From a virus (lineage: Duplodnaviria; Caudoviricetes): a stretch of 64,000 bases of DNA. A program made the translations under genes and the position numbers. Shown here one piece after another: positions 3,695 to 61,147 of the stretch. The stretch is taken from IMG/VR virus record IMGVR_UViG_3300020048_000009, positions 147,679 through 211,678 of that record; one strand, written 5' to 3'. Under the pieces are notes generated by a model that did no database searches, was not told the DNA's origin, and saw only the letters and a list, made by a program, of their open reading frames with translations. Each line of letters begins with the position of its first letter. The stretch's first letter is position 1.

Positions 3695-4696
3695 ATGAAC
3701 GATAACAAACTTAATTCAATCGGTTTCTATACAATGTATGATGAGCGCGTCAGTAAAGTTTCAGCGACTTCACAAATGAAGCGTTGTGAACTTATTATTA
3801 CAGAATATTGTAATTTCAAGTGTCCTTATTGCCGTGGTCTTGCTGATTATATCTATGGTAATAGAAAGATCAAGCAATTGACATTTAAGGAAATTTGTTA
3901 TATCATCGATCAGTGGTGTAAGCTTGAGCCTTTGGAGAGTATCAGATTTTCTGGTGGAGAACCTACTCTTCATCCCGATATTGTAGATGTTATCAAATAT
4001 GCGAAGGCAAAAGGTATTAAGAATATCGCAATTTCTACAAATGGATCTTCTCCTCAGGAATTATATGATCAGCTGTTAGAAGCAGGTGTTAATGACTGCT
4101 CAATTTCATTAGATGCTTGTTGTGCAGAAGATGGCGATCATATGGCTGGTGATAAGAAGGGTGCTTGGGATATTTTAACAAAAAACATTGCATATATCGC
4201 TAAGAAATGTTATGTTACTGTTGGTGTAGTTTTAACTCCTGAAAATGTTGATAAAACTATTGATACTGTTAGATTTGCTCATACATTAGGTGTTGCCGAT
4301 ATTCGTATTATCAGTGCTGCTCAGTGGAATCAGCCAATTCCTAGACTTAATGAAATTGAACAGGAAATTTTAGAAGCACACCCAATTCTAAAATATCGTG
4401 TTGGACATTTCGCAAATGGTGTTAATGTTAGAGGTATTTCTGATACTGATAGCAAGAGATGCTCACTTGGTTACGACGACGCAATCGTAGCGGGTGAATA
4501 TGCGTTCCCATGCATTATCTATATGCGGGAAGGTGGTAAACCTATCTGTAAGGTGGGAGATGATATGCGTGAACGTAAGATAGAATGGTTAAAGACACAT
4601 AACACACATCTTGACCCTATTTGTAAAAAGAATTGCCTGGACGTGTGCGTTTCGTACAACTGCAAATACAGAGAAATTCATGGAGAACAAGCTTAA
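3695..4696 (+). CDS. radical SAM protein
   Basis: CNFKCPYC (CxxxCxxC), FSGGEP, STNG; extra C-terminal Cys cluster. Confidence 0.9.
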   Translation: MNDNKLNSIGFYTMYDERVSKVSATSQMKRCELIITEYCNFKCPYCRGLADYIYGNRKIKQLTFKEICYIIDQWCKLEPLESIRFSGGEPTLHPDIVDVIKYAKAKGIKNIAISTNGSSPQELYDQLLEAGVNDCSISLDACCAEDGDHMAGDKKGAWDILTKNIAYIAKKCYVTVGVVLTPENVDKTIDTVRFAHTLGVADIRIISAAQWNQPIPRLNEIEQEILEAHPILKYRVGHFANGVNVRGISDTDSKRCSLGYDDAIVAGEYAFPCIIYMREGGKPICKVGDDMRERKIEWLKTHNTHLDPICKKNCLDVCVSYNCKYREIHGEQA

Positions 4697-10659: not shown

Positions 10660-10998
10660 ATGAATATTAAAGACTTACCTAAAGATGCATATGCTAGAAT
10701 AATAAGTACAAGTTTAAGTATTTATAAGAGAGCAGAATTTGTATATAGAACAGATGAGGATAGTTTGCTTACGCCTGGTACAGGTTTTCCAATATTTACA
10801 GGTTTTTTTAAAAAGATACCAGAAACATATAATGATTTTGAAATAGAAATCATAAGTAAAGAGGAATTTAAGAAGGCTGATGTTTATAATAGACCTAAAA
10901 AGCCATTAAAATTACTTGATAGTCGTATAACATTACAAGAGTGGAATAATTTATCAAAAGAAGAAAGATGGCCAGATTTATATGAAAAAGAATTATAA
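10660..10998 (+). CDS. hypothetical protein
   Basis: Packed in operon. Confidence 0.6.
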   Translation: MNIKDLPKDAYARIISTSLSIYKRAEFVYRTDEDSLLTPGTGFPIFTGFFKKIPETYNDFEIEIISKEEFKKADVYNRPKKPLKLLDSRITLQEWNNLSKEERWPDLYEKEL

Positions 10999-11332
10999 AT
11001 ATGTAACACCACTAGAAGCATTTAGACTTGGGTATGAATATGAAACGACATGTGTCTTTTGTAAGAGAAAAGGTTTGACTAATATACATATGCATCATAT
11101 AGTACCTAGAGCAAAAGGTGGAAAAGAAGTAGCTCCTACCTGTAGTGATTGTGAAGGATTTATTCATAATACTTGGAGTCATAATGAACTTAGAGATACA
11201 TATAATACCGTAGAAATTATCAAAAAAGACGAGAAATATCAAAAGTTTCTTAAATGGCTTTTAAAACAGAAACCTGAAAAGAGTTTTAAAACTATTAGAA
11301 ATAATAATAGACCAAAAGGAAAATATACATGA
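10982..11332 (+). CDS. small HNH endonuclease
   Basis: CVFC...HHIVPRAKGG...TCSDCEGFIH. Confidence 0.85.
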   Translation: MKKNYKYVTPLEAFRLGYEYETTCVFCKRKGLTNIHMHHIVPRAKGGKEVAPTCSDCEGFIHNTWSHNELRDTYNTVEIIKKDEKYQKFLKWLLKQKPEKSFKTIRNNNRPKGKYT

Positions 11333-12255: not shown

Positions 12256-12990
12256 ATGAATACACAAGATGCAGAGTATATAAATACGACAATAAAAGAA
12301 GAAGGATTTGATTATTGTTTTGATGGATATTCTAGTTTTGAAGATATTAAAGATGAACGTTTTCATTCTTTAAGACAAAAATATCTAAATGCTAAAAAAG
12401 ATCTAAAACAATATATTCAAGTAAGTTTACCTAATTGTGGTGTTCCAGAAGGAATAGATATTGAAGCTGAATTATGGAAAGCTTTAGGTGAATCTATGAA
12501 AGAAGAAGCAAAAAAAGAAGATTTAGAATTTTTAGAACAGTTAGAAAAGTTTTATAAAAGAACAACATATAAAGGTGAGATAACAGAATTAAAACCTAAT
12601 CAAGTGTTTGTGTTCGGTTCCAACACACAGGGGCGTCATGGAAAAGGAGCAGCATTATTGGCTAAGGAGAAGTTCGGAGCTATCCAGGGGCATCCTGAAG
12701 GCTTCCAGGGTCAATCCTATGCTATAATAACAAAAGACTTAACCAAAACAGTCCACCCGTCTGTTTCTGAAGAAAAAATAATAGAACAGATACAACGATT
12801 ATATGAATTTGCTAATGTAAATAAAGATCACGAATTTATTGTTGCATATAAGGGAAATTCGTATAATTTAAATGCGTATACATCACAACAAATGGCAGTT
12901 ATGTTTTCAAAATTTGATATTCCTGAGAATATTGTTTTTGAAGAAGAATTCGCCAAATTAATAGAAAAACAACAAAAAGAAAAGGTATAA
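12256..12990 (+). CDS. two-domain protein; C-terminal A1S_2505-like phage domain
   Basis: ITELKPNQVFVFGSN..GRHGKGAA..A..FGA..G..EG.QGQSYAI motif. Confidence 0.7.
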   Translation: MNTQDAEYINTTIKEEGFDYCFDGYSSFEDIKDERFHSLRQKYLNAKKDLKQYIQVSLPNCGVPEGIDIEAELWKALGESMKEEAKKEDLEFLEQLEKFYKRTTYKGEITELKPNQVFVFGSNTQGRHGKGAALLAKEKFGAIQGHPEGFQGQSYAIITKDLTKTVHPSVSEEKIIEQIQRLYEFANVNKDHEFIVAYKGNSYNLNAYTSQQMAVMFSKFDIPENIVFEEEFAKLIEKQQKEKV

Positions 12991-16587: not shown

Positions 16588-17052
16588 ATGAAAATAATTT
16601 TTGTAGATGTAGATGGTGTTTTGAATTGTAAGAATACTACTGATACTGTCATGGGCGATGATGGTCGTAGATATGATGGCATAGATTCAGATAAAATTCA
16701 ATTATTAAAAGAAATAATTGATAAAACTGATGCTTATATTATTTTATCTTCTACCTGGAGATTATATGATACGTTTACAGAATACCTAGAGGAAAAACTT
16801 GGTGACTATAAAGTCAGAATAAAAGGTATTACTCCAAGATCAAAAGCTTTTACCTATACCTATAGATTTAGAGAAATTCAAAACTGGTTTAATGAAAATG
16901 ATACTCGGGATATTGTTAATTATATTATTTTAGATGATATTGATGAAGAAATGGTTGAAACTTTTGGAGATCATTATTTTAAAACAGATGTTGATATCGG
17001 ATTAACCAGAGAAATCACAGATAAATGTATAGAGTATTTAAATAAGGAATAA
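16588..17052 (+). CDS. HAD-superfamily phosphatase, HAD_SAK_2 (RNA-repair) type
   Basis: IIFVDVDGVLN, IILSSTWR, YIILDD, GLT. Confidence 0.85.
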   Translation: MKIIFVDVDGVLNCKNTTDTVMGDDGRRYDGIDSDKIQLLKEIIDKTDAYIILSSTWRLYDTFTEYLEEKLGDYKVRIKGITPRSKAFTYTYRFREIQNWFNENDTRDIVNYIILDDIDEEMVETFGDHYFKTDVDIGLTREITDKCIEYLNKE

Positions 17053-17643: not shown

Positions 17644-17656
17644 AAAATTAAATTAT

Positions 17657-17962
17657 ATGAAAAGAATACCTGCTGTACAATGGGGACTATCTAAAAGTCC
17701 AATAGAAATGCGGAAATTAAAAATTGAAGCGGGTACTTCAATTATTCCAGCAGGCTGTTATTGTTATGATGAAAAAGGTAAATGCCCTTACTTTGATAGT
17801 TCAAGTAAATACAATGAACAAAATGACGGTTTTTGCTGGTATTTAGAAAAAGGCGACTGGATGACCAGAGAAGAGGGTGGAACATTTTTATTATTTGATC
17901 AATGTAAAGAATGTGGAATAAATGATAATAATGATGAAATTTATTTAAATAATGATAAATAA
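17657..17962 (+). CDS. Cys-rich hypothetical protein
   Basis: ATG 17657 preferred; IP.G.YCY...CPY...C.Y...DQCKECG. Confidence 0.65.
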   Translation: MKRIPAVQWGLSKSPIEMRKLKIEAGTSIIPAGCYCYDEKGKCPYFDSSSKYNEQNDGFCWYLEKGDWMTREEGGTFLLFDQCKECGINDNNDEIYLNNDK

Positions 17963-24617: not shown

Positions 24618-26258
24618 ATGTCAAATGAACAACTGTCCAAATTAGATCAATGTTTAGCTTATTTTAATAGTAACAATCTAACACCCAGAATTAACCAAAG
24701 GGAATGTTTAGATTTTTTATTAAAAAATGATGATAAAGAATTTTTTATATTAAACCTTCCGACAGGAACGGGCAAAAGCTTTATACCATTATCACTTGGT
24801 GAAATTCATAAAAAAATATTAATCGTTACTTCTACAAACCAATTAATAGAACAATATCTTAAATTGGATAAAAATGTTGTAGAAATAAAAGGCGCAGGTA
24901 ACTATAAATGCGCAAAAGAAGACTTCCTTACATGTGCTGAAGGTCCATGTAAAAATAACATGGCATTACGTCAAAGCTGTATTATTAATTCATGCTGTCC
25001 ACATATAAACCAATTAGACGCATTTAAAAATGCTAAAAAAGGTTTAACAAATTATTCTTTTGTTTTAAGTAGTATTTTATATGGTATATTTTCTGAAGAA
25101 AATAGAGAGTTTAAATATGATTGGGTTATATTTGATGAAGGTCATAATATAGAACAACATATGATTGACTTCGCAACCATAAAAATCGATTATAATTATC
25201 TAATAGAAAATCAGATAATTCCCTATGACGATTATATCATTAAAAACAAACAAGAAATTACATGGGTAGATATTATTAATTCTTGTAAATTTATTCAATC
25301 TAAAATAGCATATAGATTAGAAGTAATAAACTTTAGATTAGATGAATTGAAAAAATCTAAAAAAACGCTTAAAATCAAAAAGGAAATTAAAAAGTCTTTA
25401 GAAGAAAAATCTTTCTTGGATAAGATATTAACACCCTTCTTATTATTTCTATCACATTCAAATGAAAATAATTGGATATATGAACCCAATTCTTCTGATA
25501 ATACTTTTAAATTGACACCTATTAATGCTGGATTTATCTTTAATTCGTATTTAAAAACTATTGGTAAGAAGTTTATCTTTATGTCAGCCACAATCGGCGA
25601 CCAGGACGTGTTTAAACGCATCTTGGAGCTAGAGCCAAGTAAAACTACTTACTTCGAATGCGACTCACCATTCCCCGCTAAAGCAAGCCCTGTGGTCGTT
25701 CTACCGAAACTCAATTTATCATATACTGCTATTGATAATTCTCTAGAAAAATGTTTACAATATGTTGAAGCTATTTCATCTAAGCATAAAGAGGGTGGAA
25801 TTATCCATACTGCTAATTATAAGATTGCAACATATATCTATAATAATTGCAATCCGACATTAAAAAATAGATTAGTATGTAAAGAAAAGTACAAAAACGT
25901 AAATAACTCTAGATTAGTAGAAATACATGAAGAAAATATTAGAGGCGGTCTTAATTCTATCCTATTATCACCGTCTATGATTGAAGGATTGGATCTTATA
26001 GATGATTTAAGTAGATGGCAGATTATAATTAAGTTACCTTTTGCTAGTTTGGGTGATGGAAGAGTCAATTATCTAGCCAATAAATTTAAAGAATGGTATG
26101 TTGATGATGTTGTTAAAAAAATCATTCAGGCTTGTGGCAGAAGTACTAGAACTGAAAATGACTGGTCTATAACATATATTTTAGATAAAACCGCTCCAGC
26201 TATATTTGAACAAATTAAATTGCCTATATGGTTTAAAAATAGACTTATTTTTAAATAG
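24618..26258 (+). CDS. DinG/XPD-like SF2 helicase
   Basis: LPTGTGKS, Fe-S Cys cluster, FDEGHN, MSAT, EGLD, QACGRSTR. Confidence 0.92.
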   Translation: MSNEQLSKLDQCLAYFNSNNLTPRINQRECLDFLLKNDDKEFFILNLPTGTGKSFIPLSLGEIHKKILIVTSTNQLIEQYLKLDKNVVEIKGAGNYKCAKEDFLTCAEGPCKNNMALRQSCIINSCCPHINQLDAFKNAKKGLTNYSFVLSSILYGIFSEENREFKYDWVIFDEGHNIEQHMIDFATIKIDYNYLIENQIIPYDDYIIKNKQEITWVDIINSCKFIQSKIAYRLEVINFRLDELKKSKKTLKIKKEIKKSLEEKSFLDKILTPFLLFLSHSNENNWIYEPNSSDNTFKLTPINAGFIFNSYLKTIGKKFIFMSATIGDQDVFKRILELEPSKTTYFECDSPFPAKASPVVVLPKLNLSYTAIDNSLEKCLQYVEAISSKHKEGGIIHTANYKIATYIYNNCNPTLKNRLVCKEKYKNVNNSRLVEIHEENIRGGLNSILLSPSMIEGLDLIDDLSRWQIIIKLPFASLGDGRVNYLANKFKEWYVDDVVKKIIQACGRSTRTENDWSITYILDKTAPAIFEQIKLPIWFKNRLIFK

Positions 26259-26659: not shown

Positions 26660-27274
26660 ATGAAAATAGATAAAAAACAGTGGCAGCAAAAGATATATGA
26701 AAGTTTCTTATTGAATGAATTAGCAGCAAACGAAAATCAAGCAGTTAGAGACCTAAGAAAAGAACTAAAGCTTGATGATAAGTGGGAATCGTCATATGAA
26801 CTAAATAACAACAATAATAACATTATTGTTAAATTTACAAGTAATGATAAAACCTTGGAATTTAAATTTATTCCGTCTGCTGGAAAAGACTGTGGCTATC
26901 AAATAAAGATTAATGATGAAATTATAAAAACTTCAATAGAAACAGATCCTATAAAAAATATCTGTAATTTTATTTATGAGGATAGAGTTTTTAGAAACGT
27001 ATTAATTAAAGCTAAAGAGAAACTACTTGCTCGTGAAAAAGAACAAGAATTAGATGCTCAAAAGGATGTGTCTGCTGATGATAATGTTGATAAGAAATTA
27101 GATCAAGCAATTCCGCCGGCTGAACCCAAGGCTGAACCTTCTGGAGAACCATCGGGAGAACCATCGGGAGAACCAACAGATGAACCCACTGGAGATGAAG
27201 AAGCCAATCAGGAAAAAGCTCCACCAGAAACAGATGAAGAGAAAAAGAAACGTACAACAAGCGTAAAACTTTAA
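26660..27274 (+). CDS. probable head-packaged protein with EPSG repeats
   Basis: IYESFLLNE; acidic Pro-rich tail. Confidence 0.65.
   Translation: MKIDKKQWQQKIYESFLLNELAANENQAVRDLRKELKLDDKWESSYELNNNNNNIIVKFTSNDKTLEFKFIPSAGKDCGYQIKINDEIIKTSIETDPIKNICNFIYEDRVFRNVLIKAKEKLLAREKEQELDAQKDVSADDNVDKKLDQAIPPAEPKAEPSGEPSGEPSGEPTDEPTGDEEANQEKAPPETDEEKKKRTTSVKL
27143..27178 (+). repeat. 12-bp coding tandem repeat (ggagaaccatcg x2, plus one variant)
   Basis: Encodes GEPSGEPSGEPT. Confidence 0.85.
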
Positions 27275-31214: not shown

Positions 31215-32012
31215 TTATCCTATAAACCAGCCACCAGGCATCGCTTCGTCTTTTTTAATTGATTCTTGAAGTTTTTCTAATTCTGATCTTCCTTCATCAC
31301 CAATTGTTTGATCTATATGCGAACCGCCTGGAAGCGTTACATTTGTAAATTTCTTACGTATATTTCCTAATGTTATTTTAGCATATGCTAAACAGAATCT
31401 TTTTACATATTCATTACCATAAAGTTGACTATCTGGTGGAACTACTTCTGCTTGAACACACGTCCAACCTGAAGCACGACCCGCTAAAACAGGATTTGGA
31501 AATAATTGCAATCTTTGTGTTATATTATCAAATAAAAAGTCATATTCAGAACACATCATTCTACGTGAAAGTTTTACAAACTCTGTAACGGCCTGAAATG
31601 TTGTCCAACCTCCAGAACGTGAAACAGATGAATTAAAAAATGGGTAACTGCCATTTGCCAACATTGCGTTACCAACACCCCATAAAGTATCGCCGCCTGT
31701 CATACTGAACTGATCACCTGTTGCGATAGAATAGATTGCAGCGGCTCTAAATGGAGACGTATCAAAGCCTTCGGGTGTACCTTCTTCCTCATCAGCGCAT
31801 GGATAGGTTGCTAAATCGAAAGCAATATAGCGCATTGGGAGCTGTGCCCATTTAGTCCATATTAATGTTGCATCATTAATAGCATCATCTAAATGTTCTT
31901 CGGTTAATTCAACCGTAACCATCGGAAATCCCAATTTTCGCATAATCCATTTCTTTAGATCAGCGCGGGTTTTTATTTTTTGATTTATATATGTTAAAGC
32001 TGTAGGTTCCAT
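31215..32012 (-). CDS. T4 gp13-like neck protein
   Basis: TRADLKKWIMRKLGFPMVTVELTEEHLDDAINDA; YAKITLGNIRKKF...LPGG. Confidence 0.9.
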   Translation of the reverse strand: MEPTALTYINQKIKTRADLKKWIMRKLGFPMVTVELTEEHLDDAINDATLIWTKWAQLPMRYIAFDLATYPCADEEEGTPEGFDTSPFRAAAIYSIATGDQFSMTGGDTLWGVGNAMLANGSYPFFNSSVSRSGGWTTFQAVTEFVKLSRRMMCSEYDFLFDNITQRLQLFPNPVLAGRASGWTCVQAEVVPPDSQLYGNEYVKRFCLAYAKITLGNIRKKFTNVTLPGGSHIDQTIGDEGRSELEKLQESIKKDEAMPGGWFIG

Positions 32013-32118: not shown

Positions 32119-32745
32119 TTATCTATTTTCGTCATCAGATGTTTCTGAATTATCAGGAATAGTATCTAAATCTGTAGGAAGGTCGCCATCAGGATTTCCT
32201 TCAGGATCTCCCTCTGGGGTGCCTTCTGCATCAGGGTCTGCATCAGGATTTAATTCATTTTCTAATGATTCGGCATCTTCACCCATTGCAGATAAAATCT
32301 TCTGTGTCATAGATTTAATAATATCTAATGCCGTAACATTTTCATCATTATAATCTAATTCTTCAGGATTTTCTTCAGGATTTTCTGCATCAGGTTCACC
32401 CATAGGATCGCCTTCTTCTGGTGTATCAGCAGTTGGTTCTATATCTAAATCTGAAATAGTACCAGCATCACTATCTTCATCTTCACCTGCTTCTACAACA
32501 CCAGTACATCCTGCTTTCTTACATAGAGTATCTTCTGCAGCAGAATCACCGCCCATAGCTTTTTCTAATAAACCCATGTCTTCAGTTTTAGTCGCATCCA
32601 AACCTATTTTTTTTACATAATCCTGTAGCTTAGGATCTTTATTCTTTAAATAAGCATCAATAGGTTTAACAACATTATCCACTAAATTGCCGTCTTCTTT
32701 TACCATTTTCTTCATTGCCATAATAGTTTTCTCCAATAATTTCAA
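32119..32745 (-). CDS. highly acidic probable head/scaffold-associated protein (TTG start)
   Basis: D/E/P-rich; TAATAAATA at 32757-32765. Confidence 0.65.
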   Translation of the reverse strand: MKLLEKTIMAMKKMVKEDGNLVDNVVKPIDAYLKNKDPKLQDYVKKIGLDATKTEDMGLLEKAMGGDSAAEDTLCKKAGCTGVVEAGEDEDSDAGTISDLDIEPTADTPEEGDPMGEPDAENPEENPEELDYNDENVTALDIIKSMTQKILSAMGEDAESLENELNPDADPDAEGTPEGDPEGNPDGDLPTDLDTIPDNSETSDDENR

Positions 32746-36296: not shown

Positions 36297-36851
36297 TTAT
36301 TTATTTAAATTTAAAACAGTAAGTCCATTATTATTTTTAAATTCTTCTTTAATTGACCATTCTTTATGTTTATCTAAAAATTCTAAAATTGCAGGATATA
36401 ATCCTTTATACTTTGGATCTTCTCCCGTATTTCTAAAGGTCATAGTGTCATGTAAAATAATATATTTATTACAATATTTACTAAACTTTTCTAATTCTTT
36501 TATTAATAAATCATAAATATGCCATGTATCAATAAAAACTAAATCATATGCCCTATCTAATTCTAATTCTAATTTTAAATCATCAGATTGAATAAATTTA
36601 TAAATAATTTTTGTTTCAGATATTTCTTTATATAATATTTCAAGTTTATCTGGGGGTGGCATATTAATATCACATGATAACATATATTCAGGGTTTCCTG
36701 CCAAAAATGCATATGTCGAAACAATATTTCTAACTCCAAGCTCTAATACAGATTTACATCCCTCTGTATATTTTTTTAATATCGGTAAATGTTCATTTAT
36801 ATCAGAAGGTATTTTTACTAATGTGTTATATTTTTCTAAAATCTTTTCCAT
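36297..36851 (-). CDS. class I SAM-dependent methyltransferase (Methyltransf_24-like)
   Basis: DINEHLP; VLELGVR; DLVFIDTWH; ILHDT. Confidence 0.85.
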   Translation of the reverse strand: MEKILEKYNTLVKIPSDINEHLPILKKYTEGCKSVLELGVRNIVSTYAFLAGNPEYMLSCDINMPPPDKLEILYKEISETKIIYKFIQSDDLKLELELDRAYDLVFIDTWHIYDLLIKELEKFSKYCNKYIILHDTMTFRNTGEDPKYKGLYPAILEFLDKHKEWSIKEEFKNNNGLTVLNLNK

Positions 36852-40821: not shown

Positions 40822-42240
40822 ATGAGTATTGAGAATTATCTAATTTTTGAAGCATATAAAACAATGGGCAAAAATACAGCAGTTAAAATCAAAGAAACAG
40901 CACCAAAACCAATTAAAATCAAAGAAGATGAAAATGATCCTGAAGAATTGGACATGGATAATGAATTTGATACTGATCCTGCAGGCGTTGAACTTGATGC
41001 CGATGCAATGACTCCTGATGAAATGGAAAAAGGTACAAAGGGTACAAATAGATATGGTTCTATTTATGATGCTCCAAAAGGCCAACGTGCAGCATATGCC
41101 AATGCAATCCTAAAGAAATATAATAAATGGTCAGGAGCAGATTTACCAGTAGTTAATACTAATAAAGTAGCACACGATCCAACCAATTATTCTAATTTTA
41201 CTGGAAAAGTCGATTGTAGAGGTGGTACAGGAAATGTTAAAAATGCCACTTTCACCATAACAAAGGGTGGAAGAATATTTTTTGACCAGGGTGTATGGTT
41301 AGATGGTGAATTTAGATTGGGCACATTTACTGGTGTATTTAAAAATGGCTTATTTAAAAATGCTCTATTCGGCGGCGGCATATTTGATGGCGGAACAATG
41401 GATGGCGGCGTATTTTATGCCGGTGTATTTAAAAAAGGTGTATGGGTTAAAGGTGATGGCACAAATACAAAAGTAAACTTTATATTGAGTGTTACTGATA
41501 CAGAAGGAAAAACACATAGCAACCTAGAATTAGCAGAACTTTATAATGCAACATATCCAGCATTGAGAAATAAAAATATGATGAAACAGATAAACACTGC
41601 TGGTTTTTATTATAGAGACGAAGCAGGATGGTTAAATGAAGAGGGTGATGCTGCATCTATTGATGAATTATTCAAAATAAGAGGTATTATTACTACTATA
41701 ATGAAAAAAATCGAACGTCAGGCTGAAAGATCCTACGCCAATGCCCCAAGTCCTGAAATGATTGGTAAACCTGTACAAAGAGTTACTAAGAATCCTACAG
41801 GTGGCGTTGATGTAACAGGACAAGACGTAGATGATGAAGATGCCGGTAATATCGCGGATATTAAAGCTGGTGCAACATCTTCAGATATGGGTAAATATTC
41901 TGCTGGTGGTGGTTCTGATATTGATGCGGGTGATGATTTTACTCAAGCATTAGATCAAGATGAAAAAGCAGCAGAAATTGAACGTAAAAAAGAAGATATG
42001 CGTGCTAAAAATAAAGAATTAGGATTAGATCCTGATCAAATTGATGATGAATTGATTGATAATGAACAAGCTATCAATAGAGCATTAACTGATACTGGAT
42101 TAACTGATGAAGAACCTGATTTGACAACAGACGATCCTGAAAAAATTAGAAAAGAAAATATTAAAATATTAGCTCGTAAAGGTAAATCAGCTGCTGATAA
42201 AGCTGCGGCTGAAAAATGGAGAAGAGAAAACGGCATCTAA
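40822..42240 (+). CDS. probable head-packaged protein with G-x-F/W repeats
   Basis: LIFEAY; GVWLDGEFRLGTFTGVFKNGLF...GVWVKG. Confidence 0.65.
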   Translation: MSIENYLIFEAYKTMGKNTAVKIKETAPKPIKIKEDENDPEELDMDNEFDTDPAGVELDADAMTPDEMEKGTKGTNRYGSIYDAPKGQRAAYANAILKKYNKWSGADLPVVNTNKVAHDPTNYSNFTGKVDCRGGTGNVKNATFTITKGGRIFFDQGVWLDGEFRLGTFTGVFKNGLFKNALFGGGIFDGGTMDGGVFYAGVFKKGVWVKGDGTNTKVNFILSVTDTEGKTHSNLELAELYNATYPALRNKNMMKQINTAGFYYRDEAGWLNEEGDAASIDELFKIRGIITTIMKKIERQAERSYANAPSPEMIGKPVQRVTKNPTGGVDVTGQDVDDEDAGNIADIKAGATSSDMGKYSAGGGSDIDAGDDFTQALDQDEKAAEIERKKEDMRAKNKELGLDPDQIDDELIDNEQAINRALTDTGLTDEEPDLTTDDPEKIRKENIKILARKGKSAADKAAAEKWRRENGI

Positions 42241-44117: not shown

Positions 44118-45752
44118 ATGAACATTACAAAATTATATCAATTAATTGTAGAGAATACCGGTGAAATAAATAGATTAACTGCCAAATTTGGACCAGAATC
44201 TGCAGAGTTAAATAAATTCTATTTTAAAACTCTTAGAGGTAAATATTCTGGTGGAACATTTATTAAAGATACTAATGTAATATTACAACGTTTTAATAAT
44301 TTACAAGAATGGGAAGCTTTTTTAAGACCATGGTTAGAACGTGAAGATTATTATAATGCTAAAAACAAAGCAACAGATTTTGCTTCATTATATAATGCCT
44401 TATCTGATAAAGATATATATTCATATGATTTTGTAATTAATAAAGACAGACAACCTGAAAATGTTAAAAATATTTTAAATACACAATTAGCATATGATAT
44501 TATCTATAATGATGATACATGGCTTGTTGTTACAGCCTTTCAAGCAAATTTAGATATAAGAGATCCTAGAGCAATAAATGCATCAAAATTCTTCTGTAAA
44601 ATGAAGGGTGTAGATAATAGTAAGGGTTCAAACTGGTGTGTTGGTTGGAATTCGGGTTCTAATTACTTTGGACATTATACTGTAAATGGCGGACCACATT
44701 ATATTATCATTAAAAAGGGTCAAACAAAATATAATATTCAATTGGGTGGGGGCGAATCTGACAATAATAAACAAGATTCAGGTAACAGAAATCTCCCAGA
44801 TGGTGGATATAATGTATTTCCGCCTGTAATATTTAATAAAATATTTGAATACGCTACAAATAAAGGCTTCAATAAGGTAAAGGGTAAAGATTTAATACAA
44901 AACTTTTTAAGAGTATTAAGAGTTAGAAATTATATTCATCTTTCAGAAGTTATAATGCCTGGTGATAATACACAGGAATTTATTACAAGTATTGCTGATA
45001 ATAATATAGAAAAATTCAAAACATTAATTAAAACAAATGATGTTAATAAAATAGTTGTAAATGAAAGAATTCAATCAGATTTCCAATTAAACGTTTCAAC
45101 CTTTACACCCTTAATGCTTGCATATATATACCATAGTACTGATATATTACAATATTTGCTTACATTACCTGGTATAAATATTAATAATGAAGAAATATCA
45201 ACAACAACACCTTTAGGGTTTATAATAAATAATTACATTCAAGGAAAATTTCATAATAAATATCCAGAAGCAAAAGCTCATACTAATTTAATGTTAATAT
45301 TAAATAGTGATCAGGCAAATTTAAATAATAAAATTTATGCTGGACATAATATATTAACCAATGTTATTAGTAAATGGACTTTTTATGATAATTCTGAAAG
45401 TACAAAGGCCCGTAAATTAAATATTATCAATATATTAATAGAACGTGTGAGCTTAAATAATACTCGAATTAATAATATGACGCTATTAATGTATATCTTT
45501 TCAATGCAATTACAGGAATTATATCCATTATTTATAAATCATCCTGCTCTAGATATTAATGAAAAAGATCCAATTCTTAGAACTATATTTAGTTATCTAG
45601 TAGATACAGCAAATCCAACAGGATTAAAATATTTATTAGAAAACTGTAATAAGAAAATAGATATTACAGGATATAAATGGATTTTGCGTTTAAACGGTAC
45701 TGTTGGAACAGATGCTGAAACTTATATAAATACATATAAGAATAAAGCTTAA
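44118..45752 (+). CDS. ankyrin-repeat protein with an N-terminal phage WC domain
   Basis: YQLIVEN; NWCVG..NYFGHY...GPHYIIIK; TPLMLA..ILQYLL..PGININ, TPLG, DINEKD. Confidence 0.75.
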   Translation: MNITKLYQLIVENTGEINRLTAKFGPESAELNKFYFKTLRGKYSGGTFIKDTNVILQRFNNLQEWEAFLRPWLEREDYYNAKNKATDFASLYNALSDKDIYSYDFVINKDRQPENVKNILNTQLAYDIIYNDDTWLVVTAFQANLDIRDPRAINASKFFCKMKGVDNSKGSNWCVGWNSGSNYFGHYTVNGGPHYIIIKKGQTKYNIQLGGGESDNNKQDSGNRNLPDGGYNVFPPVIFNKIFEYATNKGFNKVKGKDLIQNFLRVLRVRNYIHLSEVIMPGDNTQEFITSIADNNIEKFKTLIKTNDVNKIVVNERIQSDFQLNVSTFTPLMLAYIYHSTDILQYLLTLPGININNEEISTTTPLGFIINNYIQGKFHNKYPEAKAHTNLMLILNSDQANLNNKIYAGHNILTNVISKWTFYDNSESTKARKLNIINILIERVSLNNTRINNMTLLMYIFSMQLQELYPLFINHPALDINEKDPILRTIFSYLVDTANPTGLKYLLENCNKKIDITGYKWILRLNGTVGTDAETYINTYKNKA

Positions 45753-47560
45753 CAAAAAGCATTTCGTATAAAGTAAGAATCAATACCCGAATTTTCTAAT
45801 AAATCTATTTCGGGTTCTTCATCGCCGAAAAATGGATCTATATCGGATCTTAATGCTATTTTAATTAATTCTAAATCTGTTTCTGTTGGTTTAAGAGTAT
45901 CTGTTACATTTTCAATAACCAATTTTCTAACTTCATCTTTAGTTAAATTATATTGTTCTAACGGCAATATTGTTTTAGGGTATTTTACATGGTCTTCTGT
46001 TATAAACCATTCAGTAACAGTGTAATATTTTTCAATATAATCTTTACTTAAAATATATAAGAACCATAACATACACATAATATGGTCGTCTTTTTTCTTC
46101 TCTCTACCTTTATAAACAATATGTTGGGCTGTTGGATATTTTATAAAATTTTCAGCGTCTATTAATATATTTTCATCATGTATTTCTATTGTAAAATATT
46201 CAGGTTTTAATGAAAATATCTCTCTAGCAAATAAACAGGCTTTTGATTTTATCTGTATATGCGACATTATTCCAGGTAAATTGTTTTTATTAATAATTAT
46301 AAAATTTTCATAATTATGAACAGTTTTAGTTAAAGCGTCAAACATTGAAGCTCCACATGAATTTCTTTCACCTGCAATATATGGATTCTGGTACTGTGCA
46401 CACACATAATTTATAACATACGCAAATTCTGTTGGTGTTATAGTATTGCTTGAATATTTAGCTGCCATTTTAATCCGAGTGAAGTCCGTAATATCCCATA
46501 TGTATAATACCGAAGAGTCGCCACCTGTTCCTTCTGCGCAGTCTACGGATGCCATATACGTGCGATAGGGGTTAAAGGCATAATACTGTACATAAAATAG
46601 ATCGTTTTTACGCTCATCTTCTGCATTAACTAATACTTGTTTGCCGTTATTCTTCAATGCATTTTTTAATTGACGCATTTCTACAATTTTATCATCAGAA
46701 ATAAGTTTATCATATGAAGAAGCCAAAAAGCTATTGCCATATTCTTGATTAAATGCGTCCATGCTTCCCAAAGATTCAATCTGAAGAGCTTTCCATTTTT
46801 CATCTCTTCCAGGGAATTCCCACCAATCAATTCTAAAAGGAACCCATTTTTCTCCATTATCATCGTTTACATTTGATAAAGCTTTTTCATAAAATTGATG
46901 AAACATTTCACCAACGCCATTTGGCGTACTAGTAATAATAACTTTAGAATTAGGGTCTGTTGAAATAATAGGATATACAGCCGTAAAGAAGGATCTTTGA
47001 AGATTTCTAGGTACGTGTGCAAATTCATCTAATAATACCATGTTCGCAGAATAACCACGGGCAGCATCTGATGATGTTGCAGCAACTTTAATACCCGAGT
47101 TATTACCAAAACGCAATTCTGTTTTATTCAAAGTTGTTAAACCACTCTTCAACCAATTAGGTAAATGTTCATAAGCTAAACGCATACGATCCATTACTTC
47201 AATAGCACCAGCTAATTTATTAGATACAACCATTACGCGTTTTTCAGCATTAAAAATAACATAATGTAATGCTAATATCGCTAAATTAGTAGTTTTTGCA
47301 ACCTGTCTAGAACTTAATACAACGACGCGTTTCTTTCCAGCAAATAAACGTAACATGTCTATTTGTTTATCATATAGTTCTATTATATGTTTGCCTCTTT
47401 TGGGTGAAATGATAGTATAATATTTATTTGCAAAATAAATAATATCATTTTTGCATTTCATTAGCTCATATATTCGATAATTAAATTCCTCTGGTGTAAT
47501 ATTTTCAGAGGCATGAGCTACTTTTAAATTCGTATTACCATTTAAATAATCTTTTCCCAT
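45749..47560 (-). CDS. terL: terminase large subunit (T4 gp17-like)
   Basis: C..D.IYFA..Y, SRQVAKTT (Walker A), LDEFAHV, STPNG, FNQEY, VDCAEG, DDHIM. Confidence 0.96.
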   Translation of the reverse strand: MGKDYLNGNTNLKVAHASENITPEEFNYRIYELMKCKNDIIYFANKYYTIISPKRGKHIIELYDKQIDMLRLFAGKKRVVVLSSRQVAKTTNLAILALHYVIFNAEKRVMVVSNKLAGAIEVMDRMRLAYEHLPNWLKSGLTTLNKTELRFGNNSGIKVAATSSDAARGYSANMVLLDEFAHVPRNLQRSFFTAVYPIISTDPNSKVIITSTPNGVGEMFHQFYEKALSNVNDDNGEKWVPFRIDWWEFPGRDEKWKALQIESLGSMDAFNQEYGNSFLASSYDKLISDDKIVEMRQLKNALKNNGKQVLVNAEDERKNDLFYVQYYAFNPYRTYMASVDCAEGTGGDSSVLYIWDITDFTRIKMAAKYSSNTITPTEFAYVINYVCAQYQNPYIAGERNSCGASMFDALTKTVHNYENFIIINKNNLPGIMSHIQIKSKACLFAREIFSLKPEYFTIEIHDENILIDAENFIKYPTAQHIVYKGREKKKDDHIMCMLWFLYILSKDYIEKYYTVTEWFITEDHVKYPKTILPLEQYNLTKDEVRKLVIENVTDTLKPTETDLELIKIALRSDIDPFFGDEEPEIDLLENSGIDSYFIRNAFC

Positions 47561-50470: not shown

Positions 50471-51256
50471 TTATTTTACAATAGCATGTGTTAGTATGTT
50501 TTTTCTATCCTGTTTGATCGGAATTCTATCACGACACCAACCACCACAATCATTACATACATAACGTTTATACGTTTGAACAGATGTTTTCTGATAGCCT
50601 CTTTGTGTAATATTAGCACTACCACATTTTGTACATCTCATTTTACTAAAATCTGTTTCATATAAGCTTACATTAGGATGCATATCATGCCAAGGCAATA
50701 GTTTCTTATATAACTGTTCTGTGACTTTAACATCATGCATACAATAAGTAATCATTTTATCCCATGCAGCTGGAACACCATTTAAACAATCACGCCATAA
50801 TGTGAAAGGTTGTTTGTCTTTTACTTCTATACCTAAATAATGACTTGCTGATTCTAAACTATTACTAGGTAAACGGAGTTTTTTCTTAAGAATTTCCAAT
50901 GTATCGCAAATTTTATAGGTAGACGGAGGTGGGAGACCATAGTATATAAATCTCGCGTTTAAGGTGCCTATATCAAAAGACCTTATATTATGCCCAATAA
51001 CAATATCGGCCTCATCCAGGAGCGCGTGGGCTTGCTTTACGACTGCCCAATCGTTGTTACGCTCTCCACGTTTCCATGCTCGGCTTCCAAACAAGCCGAT
51101 AGATTCAACAGGTTTATCTAGCCACGCCCAAGCTATGCATAATAAATATCCTGGTTCTTTAATTTGTGTTTGTCCAACAGTCTCTTTAAAACGCTTCCAT
51201 ATATATGCAGTTTCCGGAGCGGTTTCAATATCTAATATCAATATTTTTGCTGACAT
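50471..51256 (-). CDS. DEDD/RNase H-like 3'-5' exonuclease with C-terminal Zn ribbon
   Basis: LDIET, GHNI..FD, YC..DV, CTKCG...CNDCG. Confidence 0.88.
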   Translation of the reverse strand: MSAKILILDIETAPETAYIWKRFKETVGQTQIKEPGYLLCIAWAWLDKPVESIGLFGSRAWKRGERNNDWAVVKQAHALLDEADIVIGHNIRSFDIGTLNARFIYYGLPPPSTYKICDTLEILKKKLRLPSNSLESASHYLGIEVKDKQPFTLWRDCLNGVPAAWDKMITYCMHDVKVTEQLYKKLLPWHDMHPNVSLYETDFSKMRCTKCGSANITQRGYQKTSVQTYKRYVCNDCGGWCRDRIPIKQDRKNILTHAIVK

Positions 51257-54357: not shown

Positions 54358-55098
54358 CTATTTTAATTTATTTATAAATTCCCATTGTAATGGAATACCA
54401 TCTAAATTTTTTCCTGCAAATGATCTTTTGCCTTTTGCACACATACCGATTAAACCACCATCTATTAAAGTTTTTATAGATGCATCTTTAATGGAATTGA
54501 AAATTTCTCCAGTATTAATACATTTAACGCTTTTACGTTTATTTGAGCGATCACTCAATAGATATGCGCTCATTTTTTTTCTAGTTTCTTCTGTATGTTT
54601 TTTATTTTTATTCCAGGGTATTATACCAGCTCTAGCAATACTTATTCTTTTTTTATGTTCTTCTGAAAGTTTTTTATTTGAACAAGATTCTCTAATTTTT
54701 CTTTTATGTTCCTCAGAAAGACGGCGACCCTTTTTATAGGAACCTATTTTAATTCTAGTTTCTTTAGAAACATAAAACTTGGAACTACCACCACCTTTAA
54801 TATTATAATTATCAGATCTTTTAACAAAATCTTCATCGACCAAATAACTTTCCCACCAATAAGCTAATTCAGCACTTCCAAATTCATACAAAATTTCTCG
54901 TCTAAAATTATTATATCCATATTTTTTTATAGCATTATGAAATGAACGGTTACTTGTATTTTTATTTACATTACCCTGTCTATAAATTCCATTACCAATA
55001 TATCCATCTTCAAGATTATTTGTAGAATGTACACCTATATAGATCTTGCCATTAATAAGATTTGTGGTTTTATAAACTATATTATATGTTTTTTCCAT
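54358..55098 (-). mobile_element. free-standing GIY-YIG homing endonuclease with NUMOD3/NUMOD1-like DNA-binding repeats
   Basis: IVYKTTNLINGKIYIG; SEEHKRKI x2; HTEETRKKMS; VKCINTGEIFNSI. Confidence 0.88.
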
Positions 55099-56166: not shown

Positions 56167-58161
56167 TTATTCTATTAATCCTAATACATCATATGTTTGT
56201 GGGAATATATTAAAATTATCAATATAAAATGTATTCTCTGTATCTGCATTAATTATTGTAATTTTTAATATCGTTATATTGTTTTTAATTTGATTTGCTA
56301 TATTAGATATATTCCATCTAATTGTTTGCCATTGATCTACATTTGTAATATTTGGTGTTATTTCAGATACGAGTGTTTCTGATGAAGTAGGGTATTTAAT
56401 TATTACTATTCCAGCGCCTCCGGCCATACCTGCGTTGTATTCGCCTCCTCCACCGCCGCCACCACCTGTATTTTCAACACCTGCCGTTACACCGCCATTG
56501 AAATTTCCTTTACCTCCACCGCCCAGGCCTCCAGTAGATTGAGTTGTACCGCTGGAATGTGTAGCACCACCTCCACCACCTGCGTAATATATAGGCGATC
56601 CTGTTATAGAAATTTGTGAGCCATTACCACCATTACCGCCGTTTTCATAATTTCCATATACGTCTGTTGTATCTTGTCCTATTTCACTTGCGCCACCGCC
56701 GCCAGCTCCGCCATATGTTATTACATTTGTTACAGGACCACCAGAATTTCCTTGACCAACCGTACCTGTACCTCCAGTAGAAATATCAATACCATTATAT
56801 TGGGCGCCTCCTCCACCTGATCCACCATTTGAACCTTTACCATATAATCCATCAACTAATACAAAATATGCACCACCAGCACCACCACCTACCGCAGTTA
56901 AATCATTAAATATGCTATCTTCTCCATTTACACCTTCTACTCCACCAGTACCTACAGTAATAGGATAATTATTTGGTGCTATATTATAACCTGTTTCATG
57001 TATTAATCCACCTGCTCCACCACCTCCGGCATTACCTGGACTATCACTTCCTTTTCCTCCTCCACCACCTCCTGCAACTACTAAAACTTCTGCAGATAAT
57101 TGATTAGAAGTAGAAAAAATACCATCTGAAGTAAAAGTATGAATAGTATTTAACCCAGGAACTATTGAAGCATCTTCTGTTCCATTTCCTGCATTATAAA
57201 GTGCTGAAATATCTACTTGAGGAAGTATACGAGTATAGATACGAAAATCATCAAGTGATCCATTAAAATAAGGATTATATATTCCTGAGCCAGTATCATT
57301 TTGAATTCCTATTACTAAATATGGCATAGGATATATTCCAGTTACTAACATACCAACATCACTACTATTTATTAATACACCATCAACATATATTTGTTTT
57401 GAAGTAGCAGACCAAGTACTTACTATATGATGCCAATTACCATCTATTACATTACTACCTGCTACTCTATCAGGAGAACCACCATTTCCACTAAAAACAT
57501 AGAAATATATTATCCCTGATGAATTAATATAAAAATTACGATCACAATAATTTCCATTATTGTAACCTCCAGCTGAAAATTGAGATACTCCCTGATCTGC
57601 AACAGTTGTTTTTATCCAAAAAGAAATAGAACTATCATTTCTAGGTAAATCATAATATATTGCTACGCCATCACTACTTCCATTAAACATTAAAGCTCTA
57701 TTAATTTTTCCTGATGCATCAGTGATAATATCAGTATTTTGTTGTGCTGTTCCATTATTACTTGCTACAGTATCTTCTACAATAGTATTAGAAGTATTAT
57801 CATTCATCTTATAATGAGCAACTATACCAGTAGATGTATCAGAAGCATCAGAAGTTATCGTACCACCTGTAGGAAATGATCCACTATATAATTCTAATTT
57901 TATATTGCTTCCAGTTCTTGAACTTCTAATATCAAATTTTAAATCTTTTACATTAGTTAAATCATTTGGAACAGTAAAAGATTTAGTAAAAGTAGCAGAT
58001 AAAGCAACAGTAGAAGCGACTGCTTTTAAAGAATAATCACCTTGAGTTTTAATTGTTGCTTCTGAATATGCAACTAAATTTACTGCATCAGAAGTACTAT
58101 AAGCAGCCCTCGCTAAAGTATCTGAAGCATATTCCATATTATCTATTTCTAATTTTGCCAT
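56167..58161 (-). CDS. tail fibre/receptor-binding protein: LamG domain, glycine-rich domain and split beta-sandwich
   Basis: AHYKMND...FNG..D, SISFWIKT, WHHIV, GSLDDFRIY; LVVAGGGGGG...GIVIIKY. Confidence 0.8.
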   Translation of the reverse strand: MAKLEIDNMEYASDTLARAAYSTSDAVNLVAYSEATIKTQGDYSLKAVASTVALSATFTKSFTVPNDLTNVKDLKFDIRSSRTGSNIKLELYSGSFPTGGTITSDASDTSTGIVAHYKMNDNTSNTIVEDTVASNNGTAQQNTDIITDASGKINRALMFNGSSDGVAIYYDLPRNDSSISFWIKTTVADQGVSQFSAGGYNNGNYCDRNFYINSSGIIYFYVFSGNGGSPDRVAGSNVIDGNWHHIVSTWSATSKQIYVDGVLINSSDVGMLVTGIYPMPYLVIGIQNDTGSGIYNPYFNGSLDDFRIYTRILPQVDISALYNAGNGTEDASIVPGLNTIHTFTSDGIFSTSNQLSAEVLVVAGGGGGGKGSDSPGNAGGGGAGGLIHETGYNIAPNNYPITVGTGGVEGVNGEDSIFNDLTAVGGGAGGAYFVLVDGLYGKGSNGGSGGGGAQYNGIDISTGGTGTVGQGNSGGPVTNVITYGGAGGGGASEIGQDTTDVYGNYENGGNGGNGSQISITGSPIYYAGGGGGATHSSGTTQSTGGLGGGGKGNFNGGVTAGVENTGGGGGGGGEYNAGMAGGAGIVIIKYPTSSETLVSEITPNITNVDQWQTIRWNISNIANQIKNNITILKITIINADTENTFYIDNFNIFPQTYDVLGLIE

Positions 58162-58171
58162 AATTTAATTT

Positions 58172-61147
58172 TTAACTCCTTACATATTCAAATGAAACTA
58201 TAAACTTTAAAACGTCACCACTAATACCTGTATTTATCCATCCAATATAATCACCTGCATCTACAATTGGATTATCAAAACTAGATAAACTTACATTACT
58301 TGTCAATAATGTCATATCAGTACTATTTATCTTCACTGGATTTAAACCATTACTATCACATTCAGTTAACATTCCTACAAGATTAGTTCCGCCCGTTTGA
58401 AAACCATGTATTCCGGTAATTGTTAAATCATATGGAGCTCTCCAGATAGAATATGTAGCAGAAAGAGATGGATTAGTTACAACAAATGATTTTGTTTGTG
58501 TAATTAATTTAGTAAGTTGTGCATCTACTGTTGTAGTATCATATGAAATAGCAGTTGCGGGATGTGAACTTGCTGCATCTCTATTAATTAGGGCGGCGTG
58601 ATCTGTAGAAACTGCTGCAGTAGGAACACCTGTTTGTACTGTTCTAAAATCTGCTGCTTCAATAAATACACCTGTTGGAGTACCAGAAGTTCTTTGATAA
58701 ATTACTCTATAAATAAGTTTCCATTCAGCTGTACTTAAATTAATAGTTGGTGATGCAGCATTTCTTGCGTTAGTTATATTAGTATAATCGCCTTGACTTA
58801 TAACAGTATAAATAGGTTCAGCTGGATCATTTGTAGCATATACCCAATTTGTTGCATATCTATTATTTGTAATAGGCTGCAATGTTCCAGATCCATTGTC
58901 ATAAGCGAGAACACCTCCAACCAATCCTTTTGCTGCAACAGAATTTCTAGTCATTCGCATTCCACTTGTTGCATTTCTATACCATAATGATGTAGTAGTT
59001 TGTGTTGATTGAGTATCAAAAGCAATATCTTCATCATAAATTTGACCCTGAGTAACAGATAACGCAGTACTAGTAAATATTCCAGTTAAACCACCATGAT
59101 ACATAGCACCAATATTAAAATGAGCCCATTTATGCCAAGATCTATTTCTCTCGAATGAGTGTCTTTCATCAGTTAAAGTAATATTACTTCCGTCTTTAAA
59201 AACAATAGCACAAGGAGCATTTTCTCCAGAAGATAAATCCCATGGTTCTGTTGATATTTGTAATGTTCCTGTATTATCAATATAGATATAAGAAATAGTC
59301 TGATCGGCCGTAAGTGTTACAATTTGAGATGAGTCTATTGTATGTTTACCCGTTCCATTTGTCCATATATTATAAGAAACATCAGTAGGTGCAATAATTA
59401 TATCATATTGGTCTAAAATTTCTGTGTATACTGCTAAGAAGTGTGAGTCGGTTCTATTCTCAAATCCTGAATATTGTTTATAATCATTAATATTCTTATC
59501 AAAGTCAAAATATCCAGAAGTATTATGCCAAGAAGGAAATTGACCATCAACAGTTAAAGCAATTCCATCAACATCTGAAAGATCTTCTAATCTAGGAGAT
59601 ATTCTTATATTAACTGAAATAACACCATTAACTGTGTGTTTTACTTCAACTATACCAACAGAAATAAAAGTATTTGGAGCTGAAGGCGGTGTAGCAGTAA
59701 GTTTTCCAGGATGTGCAGCATCTACATATAATTCATCGCCTTCAGTATATGCATTTGTATTTAATCCGTGTACTTTACCAATTTTTGTAACTCTAACAAG
59801 ATTATTAACAGTATTTCCTCTAGTAACAACGCCTATACAGGCATTTCCTATAAGTGAATTTGTTATATCAGTTAAGCCAACTGCTTGTCTATTTCCTGAA
59901 ACACCTTTTATAGAAACAACATCACCATCTAATAAAGTAACGCCTGCAAGATTTGTATAACAATCTACTACTTCTTTTCCAAGTTCTAAAGAACCATCTT
60001 CTACGCCAAAAGATAGAGTATGTTCATCAGCATTATAAACCAAATCACCTTGAGCAATAGATGTAAGACCAGTAATAGGTGTAAAAGATAATTTATCTTG
60101 AATTAATGCTGAAGATAAATCTTGGCTAATAGAATAACCGTTTAATATATCAACTTTTGTAGACAAACCGCTTGTAGAAGTTGTAATTAATGTTCTTATA
60201 TCATCATGCGCTATTATAGAATTATTATGACTAGAAATAGAACTTGTTACAAATGTTTCAGATGCATGTCCACTTAAAATATATCCAGATGGAACATTTA
60301 TTTCAGAAGAATATATAGGTAATCTTACTACAGGTCTATCAGCAAAAATATCACCCCAGCCCTGTGCTGTTGGATTTGTAACAAAACTTGTAACATTTGG
60401 AGAAAATCCATATGTACCATAATATGATGGAGCATCTCCATCATAAAATACACCGGTAAGAGCTGAGCATGAATAAAAGGCGCTGTCAATATTTTCAACT
60501 TTTCCAACATATGCTGTTTTTAAATTAATACATCCTTCAAAACATATATCAAAAGCTGTTTTTAGAGCAGGAAGATTTATTGTTTCTAATAAAGGTTCAT
60601 TCCAAAAACACATAGAATCTATATGTTCAATATTACTAGCATCAATTGACGTTATAAAAGATGGTACATAATTATCATCTACAATACGAGTAAACGCATT
60701 AGCTCCTATACGTGTAACAGGCAAACCGTCTATTATATCTGGAATAATTATAGAGGTGCCGCTTGGCCCAATATATTGTGTAATAGTAATATCATTTCCA
60801 TCACTAGACCAAGTAAAATTATTATTTATATAATCAGAATTTTTCCAAGTTGAAGAAACTGGAGCATATGAAGATAAGCTATTTGAAACATTAGTTACAG
60901 AATCTCGTATATCACTATGAGCAACTATATTAGTATTATGAGAAGATATTGCTGATGTTACAAACGTTTCTGTTGCTAAGCCTATTATACTAGGAATATT
61001 TCCAGATAAATCGATAATATCTTGTTGAATATTTTCAATATTTCCAGATAATGTACCAATATCTTGTTCAATATTAACAATATCACCTGATAATGTTTGA
61101 ACAAGAGAATCTACATAAAATTTTGAACTTATTATTTTGTTTGCCAT
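58172..61147 (-). CDS. tail fibre protein with BspA-type LRR (LRR_5) module
   Basis: ITITQY.G...IIPD.IDGLPVT.IG..AF; AFYSCS.LT.V.Y.GDAP; His repeats. Confidence 0.75.
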   Translation of the reverse strand: MANKIISSKFYVDSLVQTLSGDIVNIEQDIGTLSGNIENIQQDIIDLSGNIPSIIGLATETFVTSAISSHNTNIVAHSDIRDSVTNVSNSLSSYAPVSSTWKNSDYINNNFTWSSDGNDITITQYIGPSGTSIIIPDIIDGLPVTRIGANAFTRIVDDNYVPSFITSIDASNIEHIDSMCFWNEPLLETINLPALKTAFDICFEGCINLKTAYVGKVENIDSAFYSCSALTGVFYDGDAPSYYGTYGFSPNVTSFVTNPTAQGWGDIFADRPVVRLPIYSSEINVPSGYILSGHASETFVTSSISSHNNSIIAHDDIRTLITTSTSGLSTKVDILNGYSISQDLSSALIQDKLSFTPITGLTSIAQGDLVYNADEHTLSFGVEDGSLELGKEVVDCYTNLAGVTLLDGDVVSIKGVSGNRQAVGLTDITNSLIGNACIGVVTRGNTVNNLVRVTKIGKVHGLNTNAYTEGDELYVDAAHPGKLTATPPSAPNTFISVGIVEVKHTVNGVISVNIRISPRLEDLSDVDGIALTVDGQFPSWHNTSGYFDFDKNINDYKQYSGFENRTDSHFLAVYTEILDQYDIIIAPTDVSYNIWTNGTGKHTIDSSQIVTLTADQTISYIYIDNTGTLQISTEPWDLSSGENAPCAIVFKDGSNITLTDERHSFERNRSWHKWAHFNIGAMYHGGLTGIFTSTALSVTQGQIYDEDIAFDTQSTQTTTSLWYRNATSGMRMTRNSVAAKGLVGGVLAYDNGSGTLQPITNNRYATNWVYATNDPAEPIYTVISQGDYTNITNARNAASPTINLSTAEWKLIYRVIYQRTSGTPTGVFIEAADFRTVQTGVPTAAVSTDHAALINRDAASSHPATAISYDTTTVDAQLTKLITQTKSFVVTNPSLSATYSIWRAPYDLTITGIHGFQTGGTNLVGMLTECDSNGLNPVKINSTDMTLLTSNVSLSSFDNPIVDAGDYIGWINTGISGDVLKFIVSFEYVRS

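Follow-up and report, generated by a model that had tools for sequence, protein, structure and literature searches.

The helicase gene and its GC3 island

The stretch of DNA analysed here (64 kb, referred to below as the window) is the terminal part, positions 147679-211678, of a 211,678 bp metagenome assembly in IMG/VR. The record comes from an AT-rich, T4-like lake phage and is estimated to be about 84% complete. The genome has a GC content of 29.8%, and its terminase is T4-like, with about 33% identity to the terminases of cyanophages and Pelagibacter phages. The ORFs of the window read normally in code 11. The tRNA complement of the record comprises 24 tRNA genes and a tRNA(CUA). The 24 genes form a cluster at 83,394-93,081 of the genome, with at least three HNH endonuclease genes between them (at about 84.2-84.9, 86.4-86.9 and 88.9-89.4 kb). 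The tRNA with the CUA anticodon, an amber suppressor that ARAGORN labels tRNA-Pyl, is found at 140246-140322 of the genome, 7.4 kb before the window.

Two features define the locus, in window coordinates:

24618-26258, plus strand: DinG/Rad3 (XPD-like) SF2 helicase gene, 546 aa, intact, with Pfam matches
25566-25712, plus strand: GC3 island within the helicase gene, 49 codons (147 nt), aa 317-365 (KKFIFMSATIGD...VVVLPKL)

The Pfam matches of the helicase ORF are to Helicase_C_2 (5e-19), ResIII and DEAD_2, and the island lies between ResIII (aa 21-181) and Helicase_C_2 (aa 385-524). The protein has 115 homologues, the nearest of which are P0001 (99% amino acid identity) and P0002 (88%, the 88% relative in what follows).

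A reading of the sequence by hand had singled out positions 25581-25712 as an abrupt patch of G/C-ending codons in an otherwise intact helicase, and a recount reproduces this original prediction. G or C ends 23 of the 43 codons other than Met and Trp in the patch, versus 7/45 immediately upstream and 6/46 immediately downstream (Fisher p = 5e-6 for patch versus flanks). The frame and the protein are indeed intact across the patch, which corresponds to motif III (FMSATIGD) and about 40 residues beyond it. As delimited by our scan, the island extends from K317-K318 to L365. Its edges are sharp, and the 23 codons that come next all end in A or T. GC3 is about 0.55 within the island and 0.18 elsewhere in the gene, and all three codon positions are raised (GC1/GC2/GC3 of 0.56/0.44/0.54 versus 0.33/0.28/0.18). 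For the 76 ORFs of the window, background GC3 is 0.151; 6.4% of third positions are C and 8.7% are G. Both bases contribute to the third positions of the island (16 C and 8 G), CpG is as frequent as expected, and the tract lacks a G-then-C strand pattern. It is the sole GC3 island in its gene; other helicase motifs that are equally conserved have none.

Two statistical approaches place the patch outside random GC3 fluctuation. In the helicase, up to 22 of 40 consecutive codons end in G or C. When synonymous codons were shuffled across all genes with the proteins unchanged (300 runs), the window-wide maximum averaged 15.1 and reached 20 at the highest, and shuffling within the helicase gene gave at most 19 (p < 1/300). 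In a likelihood-ratio scan of GC3 over the 252 AT-rich ORFs of the genome, for which the null distribution has a 95th percentile of 11.7 and a maximum of 14.7, the helicase island is the top-scoring island of the genome, with a score of 21.0. The helicase island is therefore real and far beyond chance.

GC3 islands and GC-rich DNA elsewhere in the genome

Eleven islands exceed the 95% threshold genome-wide. Five of them are in the window and belong to the helicase, a radical SAM protein, an exonuclease, a phrog_2072 protein and the terminase. The features other than the helicase island, together with a weak patch and a nuclease gene discussed below, are:

4451-4669, plus strand: radical SAM GC3 island, 73 codons, GC3 0.47, in the Cys-rich C-terminal part of ORF 3695-4696
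10982-11332, plus strand: free-standing HNH endonuclease gene, 1.3 kb upstream of the 12604 island
12604-12759, plus strand: phrog_2072-domain GC3 island, 52 codons, GC3 0.46, in ORF 12256-12990 where its conserved phrog_2072 domain begins
31692-31850, minus strand: weak patch, GC3 0.34, within-gene shuffle p = 0.31
46475-46588, minus strand: terminase GC3 island, 38 codons, GC3 0.50, aa 325-362 of the large subunit (ORF 45749-47560)
50897-51100, minus strand: exonuclease GC3 island, 68 codons, GC3 0.44, in the HN..FD motif region of the DEDD-type exonuclease ORF 50471-51256
Outside the window, in genome coordinates, six islands above threshold: 17655-17792, 36695-36823, 118933-119010, 140517-140669, 16910-16969 and 103560-103607

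Four further patches had been proposed alongside the helicase one, and they fare unequally. The patch at 12601-12717 is clearly borne out, with a GC3 of 0.49 versus 0.09 and a shuffle p < 1/300, and those at 46475-46615 and 51008-51100 hold up more weakly (shuffle p of about 0.01). The patch at 31690-31850, with a GC3 of 0.34, loses significance once amino acid content is controlled for in the within-gene shuffle. The radical SAM island, which had escaped that list, has a scan score of 20.6 and a within-gene p of 0.11; the whole gene is somewhat GC3-rich (0.27).

Most of the annotated islands fall on conserved segments of core genes. The terminase island is C-terminal to the Pfam Terminase_6N match (aa 82-280), on what we take, from our own reading rather than from a tool result, to be the first motif of the nuclease domain. 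Among the islands outside the window, one reaches and crosses the P-loop of a DnaB-like helicase (aa 180-225, with DnaB_C starting at 186) and another is in an AAA ATPase. An island in the zinc finger of DnaJ (genome 145278-145409) scores slightly under the threshold.

Other GC-rich patches in the window reflect the amino acid composition of the protein and not codon choice. The segments at 27113-27227, 32172-32247, 32385-32559, 41712-41932, 56411-57075, 58551-58632 and 61545-61646 combine high GC1 and GC2 with normal GC3, and correspond to Gly-, Pro-, Ala- or Asp-rich protein segments. Those at 27113-27227, 32172-32247 and 56411-57075 encode Pro/Glu/Thr and Gly-rich repeats (a protein with Laminin_G_3 plus glycine-rich domains).

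No RNA-level or ORF-level feature accounts for the helicase island. An overlapping gene is excluded by stops in every alternative frame, and the search for a promoter or terminator returned nothing notable and no terminator-like site. Folding of four islands on both strands gave z-scores of -1.46 to +1.09, and the window contains no Rfam match. Likewise, the 11 islands share no k-mer or DNA motif beyond what is seen in shuffles.

What the islands do share is their codon usage. Pooled over the 11 islands, it is near uniform. AGR codons fall from 70% of Arg codons in the background to 26% in the islands (AGA from 62% to 11%), with CGN codons taking their place, and Leu is encoded by all six of its codons where the background uses TTA for 60%. 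This usage correlates at r = 0.80 with that of a GC-rich block elsewhere in the genome, versus 0.36 with the background. The block spans about 25 kb outside the window (genome 57.6-82 kb), and the GC3 of its genes is 0.4-0.65, versus 0.15 for the genome. It includes the genes for GroES, GroEL (GC3 0.53), an M28 peptidase and a DUF932 protein. In about 70 further phages of AT-rich composition, GroEL has a GC3 of just 0.11-0.26. The block is therefore anomalous in composition in this lineage rather than typical of the gene, and the same comparison led us to reject generic expression-linked GC-rich codon usage for the GroEL block. A search for the donor lineage through the relatives of this GroEL gave a closest match of just 49% amino acid identity. 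The lineage thus holds DNA that looks compositionally foreign.

Homologues, donors and mobile elements

The island is specific to the lineage. Of 160 helicase loci sampled in IMG/VR and in JGI metagenomes, none has more than 50% amino acid identity to the phage protein. In a codon alignment of these relatives there is no rise in GC3 at the island columns (0.18 vs 0.09 in L082, a 50% relative), and 70 AT-rich helicase homologues are free of GC3 islands along their whole length. The second island tells the same story. Hundreds of homologues of its phrog_2072 domain at 60-81% identity, 137-143 aa long and usually stand-alone, are widespread in metagenomes. ORF 12256-12990 is a fusion of an N-terminal phrog_17752 domain to the phrog_2072 domain, which has an invariant FGSN..GRHG.GAA core and no Pfam family. 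The island begins 17 residues inside this domain and spans the best-conserved third of it (mean identity 0.78 vs 0.57). At the island columns, about 70 AT-rich homologues from IMG/VR have a GC3 of 0.03-0.27 and show no third-position identity to the island. Because the homologues of both the helicase and the phrog_2072 protein are without the feature, the islands are lineage-specific and not a conserved codon feature of the motifs that they cover.

Sporadic islands of this kind also occur in cultured AT-rich T4-like phages. In the gp46-like gene of Pelagibacter phage Mosig (L350:36623-38338), codons 172-219 form a GC3 island (0.60 vs 0.26 for the gene) with a score of 20.6 against a null 95% value of 10.0. 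This island is in a fast-evolving part of the gene, and it is missing from the homologue in HTVC008M, which again marks it as lineage-specific.

At the protein level, the island is typical of its clade. In a search limited to residues 318-366, the peptide is 100% identical in P0001 and 96% identical in P0002, and the next match is at 63%. The two differences from P0002 compare with 4.6 expected from site-specific rates (p = 0.15; 68 differences overall), so that divergence at the island is neither raised nor significantly lowered, and the protein shows no discontinuity there. The GC-raising differences between P0002 and the phage protein number 26 against 18 (p = 0.29); P0002 is not detectably GC-richer. 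The amino acids at the island columns are nevertheless shifted towards GC: the excess of GC at first and second positions is 0.083-0.095 in the clade of the phage, including P0002, versus -0.008 to 0.064 in the 50% clade (n=11). The corresponding shift at the phrog_2072 island reaches only the 94th percentile. This amino acid make-up indicates that the shift in composition extends beyond synonymous sites, and its presence in P0002 that the shift is common to the phage and its 88% relative or predates their split.

Searches for a source of the islands were negative. With blastn, the helicase island had only a short motif match among the 160 helicase loci, and comparison with 126 helicase loci and 80 phrog_2072 loci yielded no donor. 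An exact 20-mer has no match in IMG/VR, no close helicase is present in the GTDB genomes, and no island has a repeat partner, a paralogue or an intragenomic donor. The genome has no match to a reverse transcriptase (RVT_1). Templated mutagenesis of the DGR type, one of the origins first proposed for the patches, finds no footing here, as both the reverse transcriptase and the repeat partner are missing.

Mobile elements are present in the genome. No HNH, GIY-YIG or LAGLIDADG gene was found with Pfam or PHROGs within 5 kb of the helicase. The 12604 island is the only one near a nuclease gene, the HNH gene listed above; further HNH genes are in the tRNA region (genome 84.2-89.4 kb), and there is a weak GIY-YIG-like match at about 54832-55083 of the window. 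No intron was detected in the window. An intein at the patch was considered and rejected: the inteins of two helicase homologues (P0062 and P0072) interrupt Walker A and not motif III. No insertion occurs at the patch in the other long helicase homologues or in those of cultured phages, and no interrupted terminase gene is present among the best 40 matches in cultured phages. The UvsX gene of this genome (genome 14868-16712) has an intein-like insertion in its P-loop (GESG|C...HN|SGKS), which we read from the translation and which the Pfam Intein_splicing model does not detect. Its flanks consist of ordinary AT-rich codons and contain no GC3 island. A link between the patches and homing endonucleases had also been proposed. 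With no nuclease gene found within 5 kb of the helicase, the inteins of homologues in Walker A and the flanks of the UvsX intein AT-rich, it has no direct support at this island.

Possible origins of the islands

The tract is sharp-edged and written in the codon usage of another compositional regime, to which a large block of the same genome also belongs; both observations look like the outcome of DNA replacement. Our leading guess, tentative at a probability of roughly 0.38 and short of an established cause, is that the helicase island is a short tract of gene conversion or repair that members of the clade exchanged. In the course of recombinational repair, gene conversion would have put another copy of the DNA in place of some 147 nt of the helicase gene. 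The replacing copy would have encoded a near-identical peptide in compositionally neutral codons (about 50% GC3), in the midst of a genome of about 15% GC3. With some eleven tracts and the 25-kb block in one genome, the lineage appears to have exchanged DNA with GC-richer kin, and the position of most annotated islands on conserved segments of core genes would make homeologous exchange feasible there. That DNA was replaced and not altered in place is what we infer, and the trigger and the donor are inferred likewise.

The clade-typical peptide, together with the GC-shifted amino acids of the 88% relative, suggests that such an exchange took place inside the phage's own clade, or that the tract was acquired before the split from that relative. 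The failure to find a donor and the smooth course of the peptide point the same way, to a donor inside the clade or to an old event. Micro-recombination from a relative of higher GC, the first origin that had been suggested for the patch, is thus upheld in part. The sharp edges, the near-uniform and seemingly foreign codon usage and the likeness to the 25-kb block agree with it, but no donor was found and the peptide shows no discontinuity relative to the 88% relative. There is also a point against the leading reading. By a rough estimate, a tract acquired before the split and exposed since then to AT bias should sit well below a GC3 of 0.55. Given an equilibrium GC3 of 0.15 and a relic older than 12% protein divergence, this argues against a purely passive old relic.

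A close rival, which fits several of the observations almost as well though we give it lower odds, is that the island arose in place, by GC-biased repair at a site of recurrent heteroduplex or double-strand-break repair between co-infecting relatives. Mismatch correction favouring G and C would gradually bring silent sites, along with some of the replacement sites, to a GC of about 50%, with no foreign donor involved. Such a process needs no donor, predicts a clade-typical peptide and is in keeping with a lineage-specific feature. The GC-shifted amino acids at the island columns, which extend to the 88% relative, are as expected from a force that acts on all sites, and silent changes at first positions (TTA to CTN, AGA to CGN) also run towards GC. 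However, replacement accounts better for how sharp the edges are and for the abundance of CGT codons, which would not be favoured by a GC drive alone, and the other equally conserved helicase motifs are free of islands. We know of no demonstration of biased gene conversion in phages, and a literature search on the subject found no report. In a broader and somewhat less probable form of this proposal, the GC3 islands of AT-rich T4-like jumbo phages in general would be places in conserved genes where breaks or heteroduplexes recur and are repaired locally in favour of GC. The sites might be cuts made by the nucleases of competitors, and the islands might be kept up against a strong AT mutation pressure. 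Islands that persist in this manner would be compatible with the clade-typical peptide, with the amino acid shift in the 88% relative and with the missing donor.

The footprint of a homing endonuclease, a special case of the exchange within the clade that we favour, is less probable still. The island would then be a co-conversion or immunity patch at a cut site in the DNA for motif III, and the nuclease could be that of a relative, whether intron-borne, intein-borne or free-standing. The conserved motifs on which the islands lie are those of typical targets (helicase, DnaB-like helicase, terminase and exonuclease), the genome has several HNH genes and an intein, and one HNH gene is 1.3 kb from the 12604 island. 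Set against these are a helicase without a nuclease gene within 5 kb, homologues without an insertion at the patch, a UvsX intein with AT-rich flanks, a window without a detected intron and an island without a G-then-C pattern. A homing-nuclease origin can still be entertained because the recipient genome need not carry the nuclease gene. We give even lower odds to selection on the codons or on the nucleic acid itself, whereby the island would be a cluster of rare codons slowing ribosomes between the motor domains of the helicase, or a DNA or RNA element selected for duplex stability. Three islands (helicase, terminase and phrog_2072) begin at or just past a Pfam or PHROGs domain boundary, the DnaB-like one spans the start of DnaB_C, and the peptide is unchanged. 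None of the 70 AT-rich helicases and none of the roughly 70 phrog_2072 homologues keeps an island at the same columns, though, and the RNA structure, common-motif and Rfam searches gave no signal of an element. The amino acid shift towards GC would be unexpected from selection on codons alone, and the phage tRNAs include G34 species that read NNC codons. An assembly chimera, in which reads from another organism's homologue were stitched into the contig, is very improbable. The record is a metagenome assembly and the tract lengths (about 100-220 nt) are near those of short reads. On our own reasoning about de Bruijn assemblers, however, such a join needs exact k-mers in both AT-rich flanks; the reads would then come from a relative that is almost identical, in which case the tract would be genuine all the same. 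Furthermore, the frame and the clade-specific peptide are intact, the peptide recurs at 100% and 96% identity on the different contigs of P0001 and P0002, and about eleven independent events would be required.

Should the islands be conversion tracts, they would document DNA exchange on a fine scale between phages of different composition, within essential genes and at a size of about 50-220 nt that ordinary analyses of mosaicism miss. Should they result from biased repair, they would be evidence for GC-biased gene conversion in viruses, and hot spots of recombination or nuclease conflict could be mapped directly from them in uncultured phages. In either case, host prediction from codon usage, detection of gene transfer and tests of selection would be locally distorted in such genomes.

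Each of these origins has a counterpart among known systems. Clusters of rare codons at domain boundaries have been linked to co-translational folding, and the island resembles them in placing about 50 genome-rare codons between two Pfam helicase domain matches; unlike a selected cluster, it is conserved in no homologue examined, and its amino acids are shifted towards GC as well. GC-biased gene conversion acts at recombination hot spots in eukaryotes and has been proposed for bacteria. The local gain of G and C at silent sites, weaker at replacement sites, lineage-specific and without a donor, is similar, whereas the edges are sharper than the gradient around a hot spot. In T-even phages, co-conversion and localized marker exclusion reportedly occur around homing-endonuclease sites, and nuclease genes are said to mark the boundaries of exchange in phages. 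Tracts of tens to hundreds of bases in conserved genes, in a genome with HNH genes and an intein, recall these cases. They differ in that no nuclease, intron or intein is near the helicase island, either here or in the sampled homologues, and in that the flanks of the resident intein are free of islands. T4-type phages replicate in a recombination-dependent manner, and homeologous exchange between them gives rise to short conversion or mosaic tracts. The helicase island departs from such tracts in its missing donor allele, in its silence at the protein level and in coinciding with a conserved segment instead of lying between two conserved crossover points. It matches them in being a discrete, sharp-edged segment of a core gene with deviant composition, and in being one of several tracts of varied length in the same genome.
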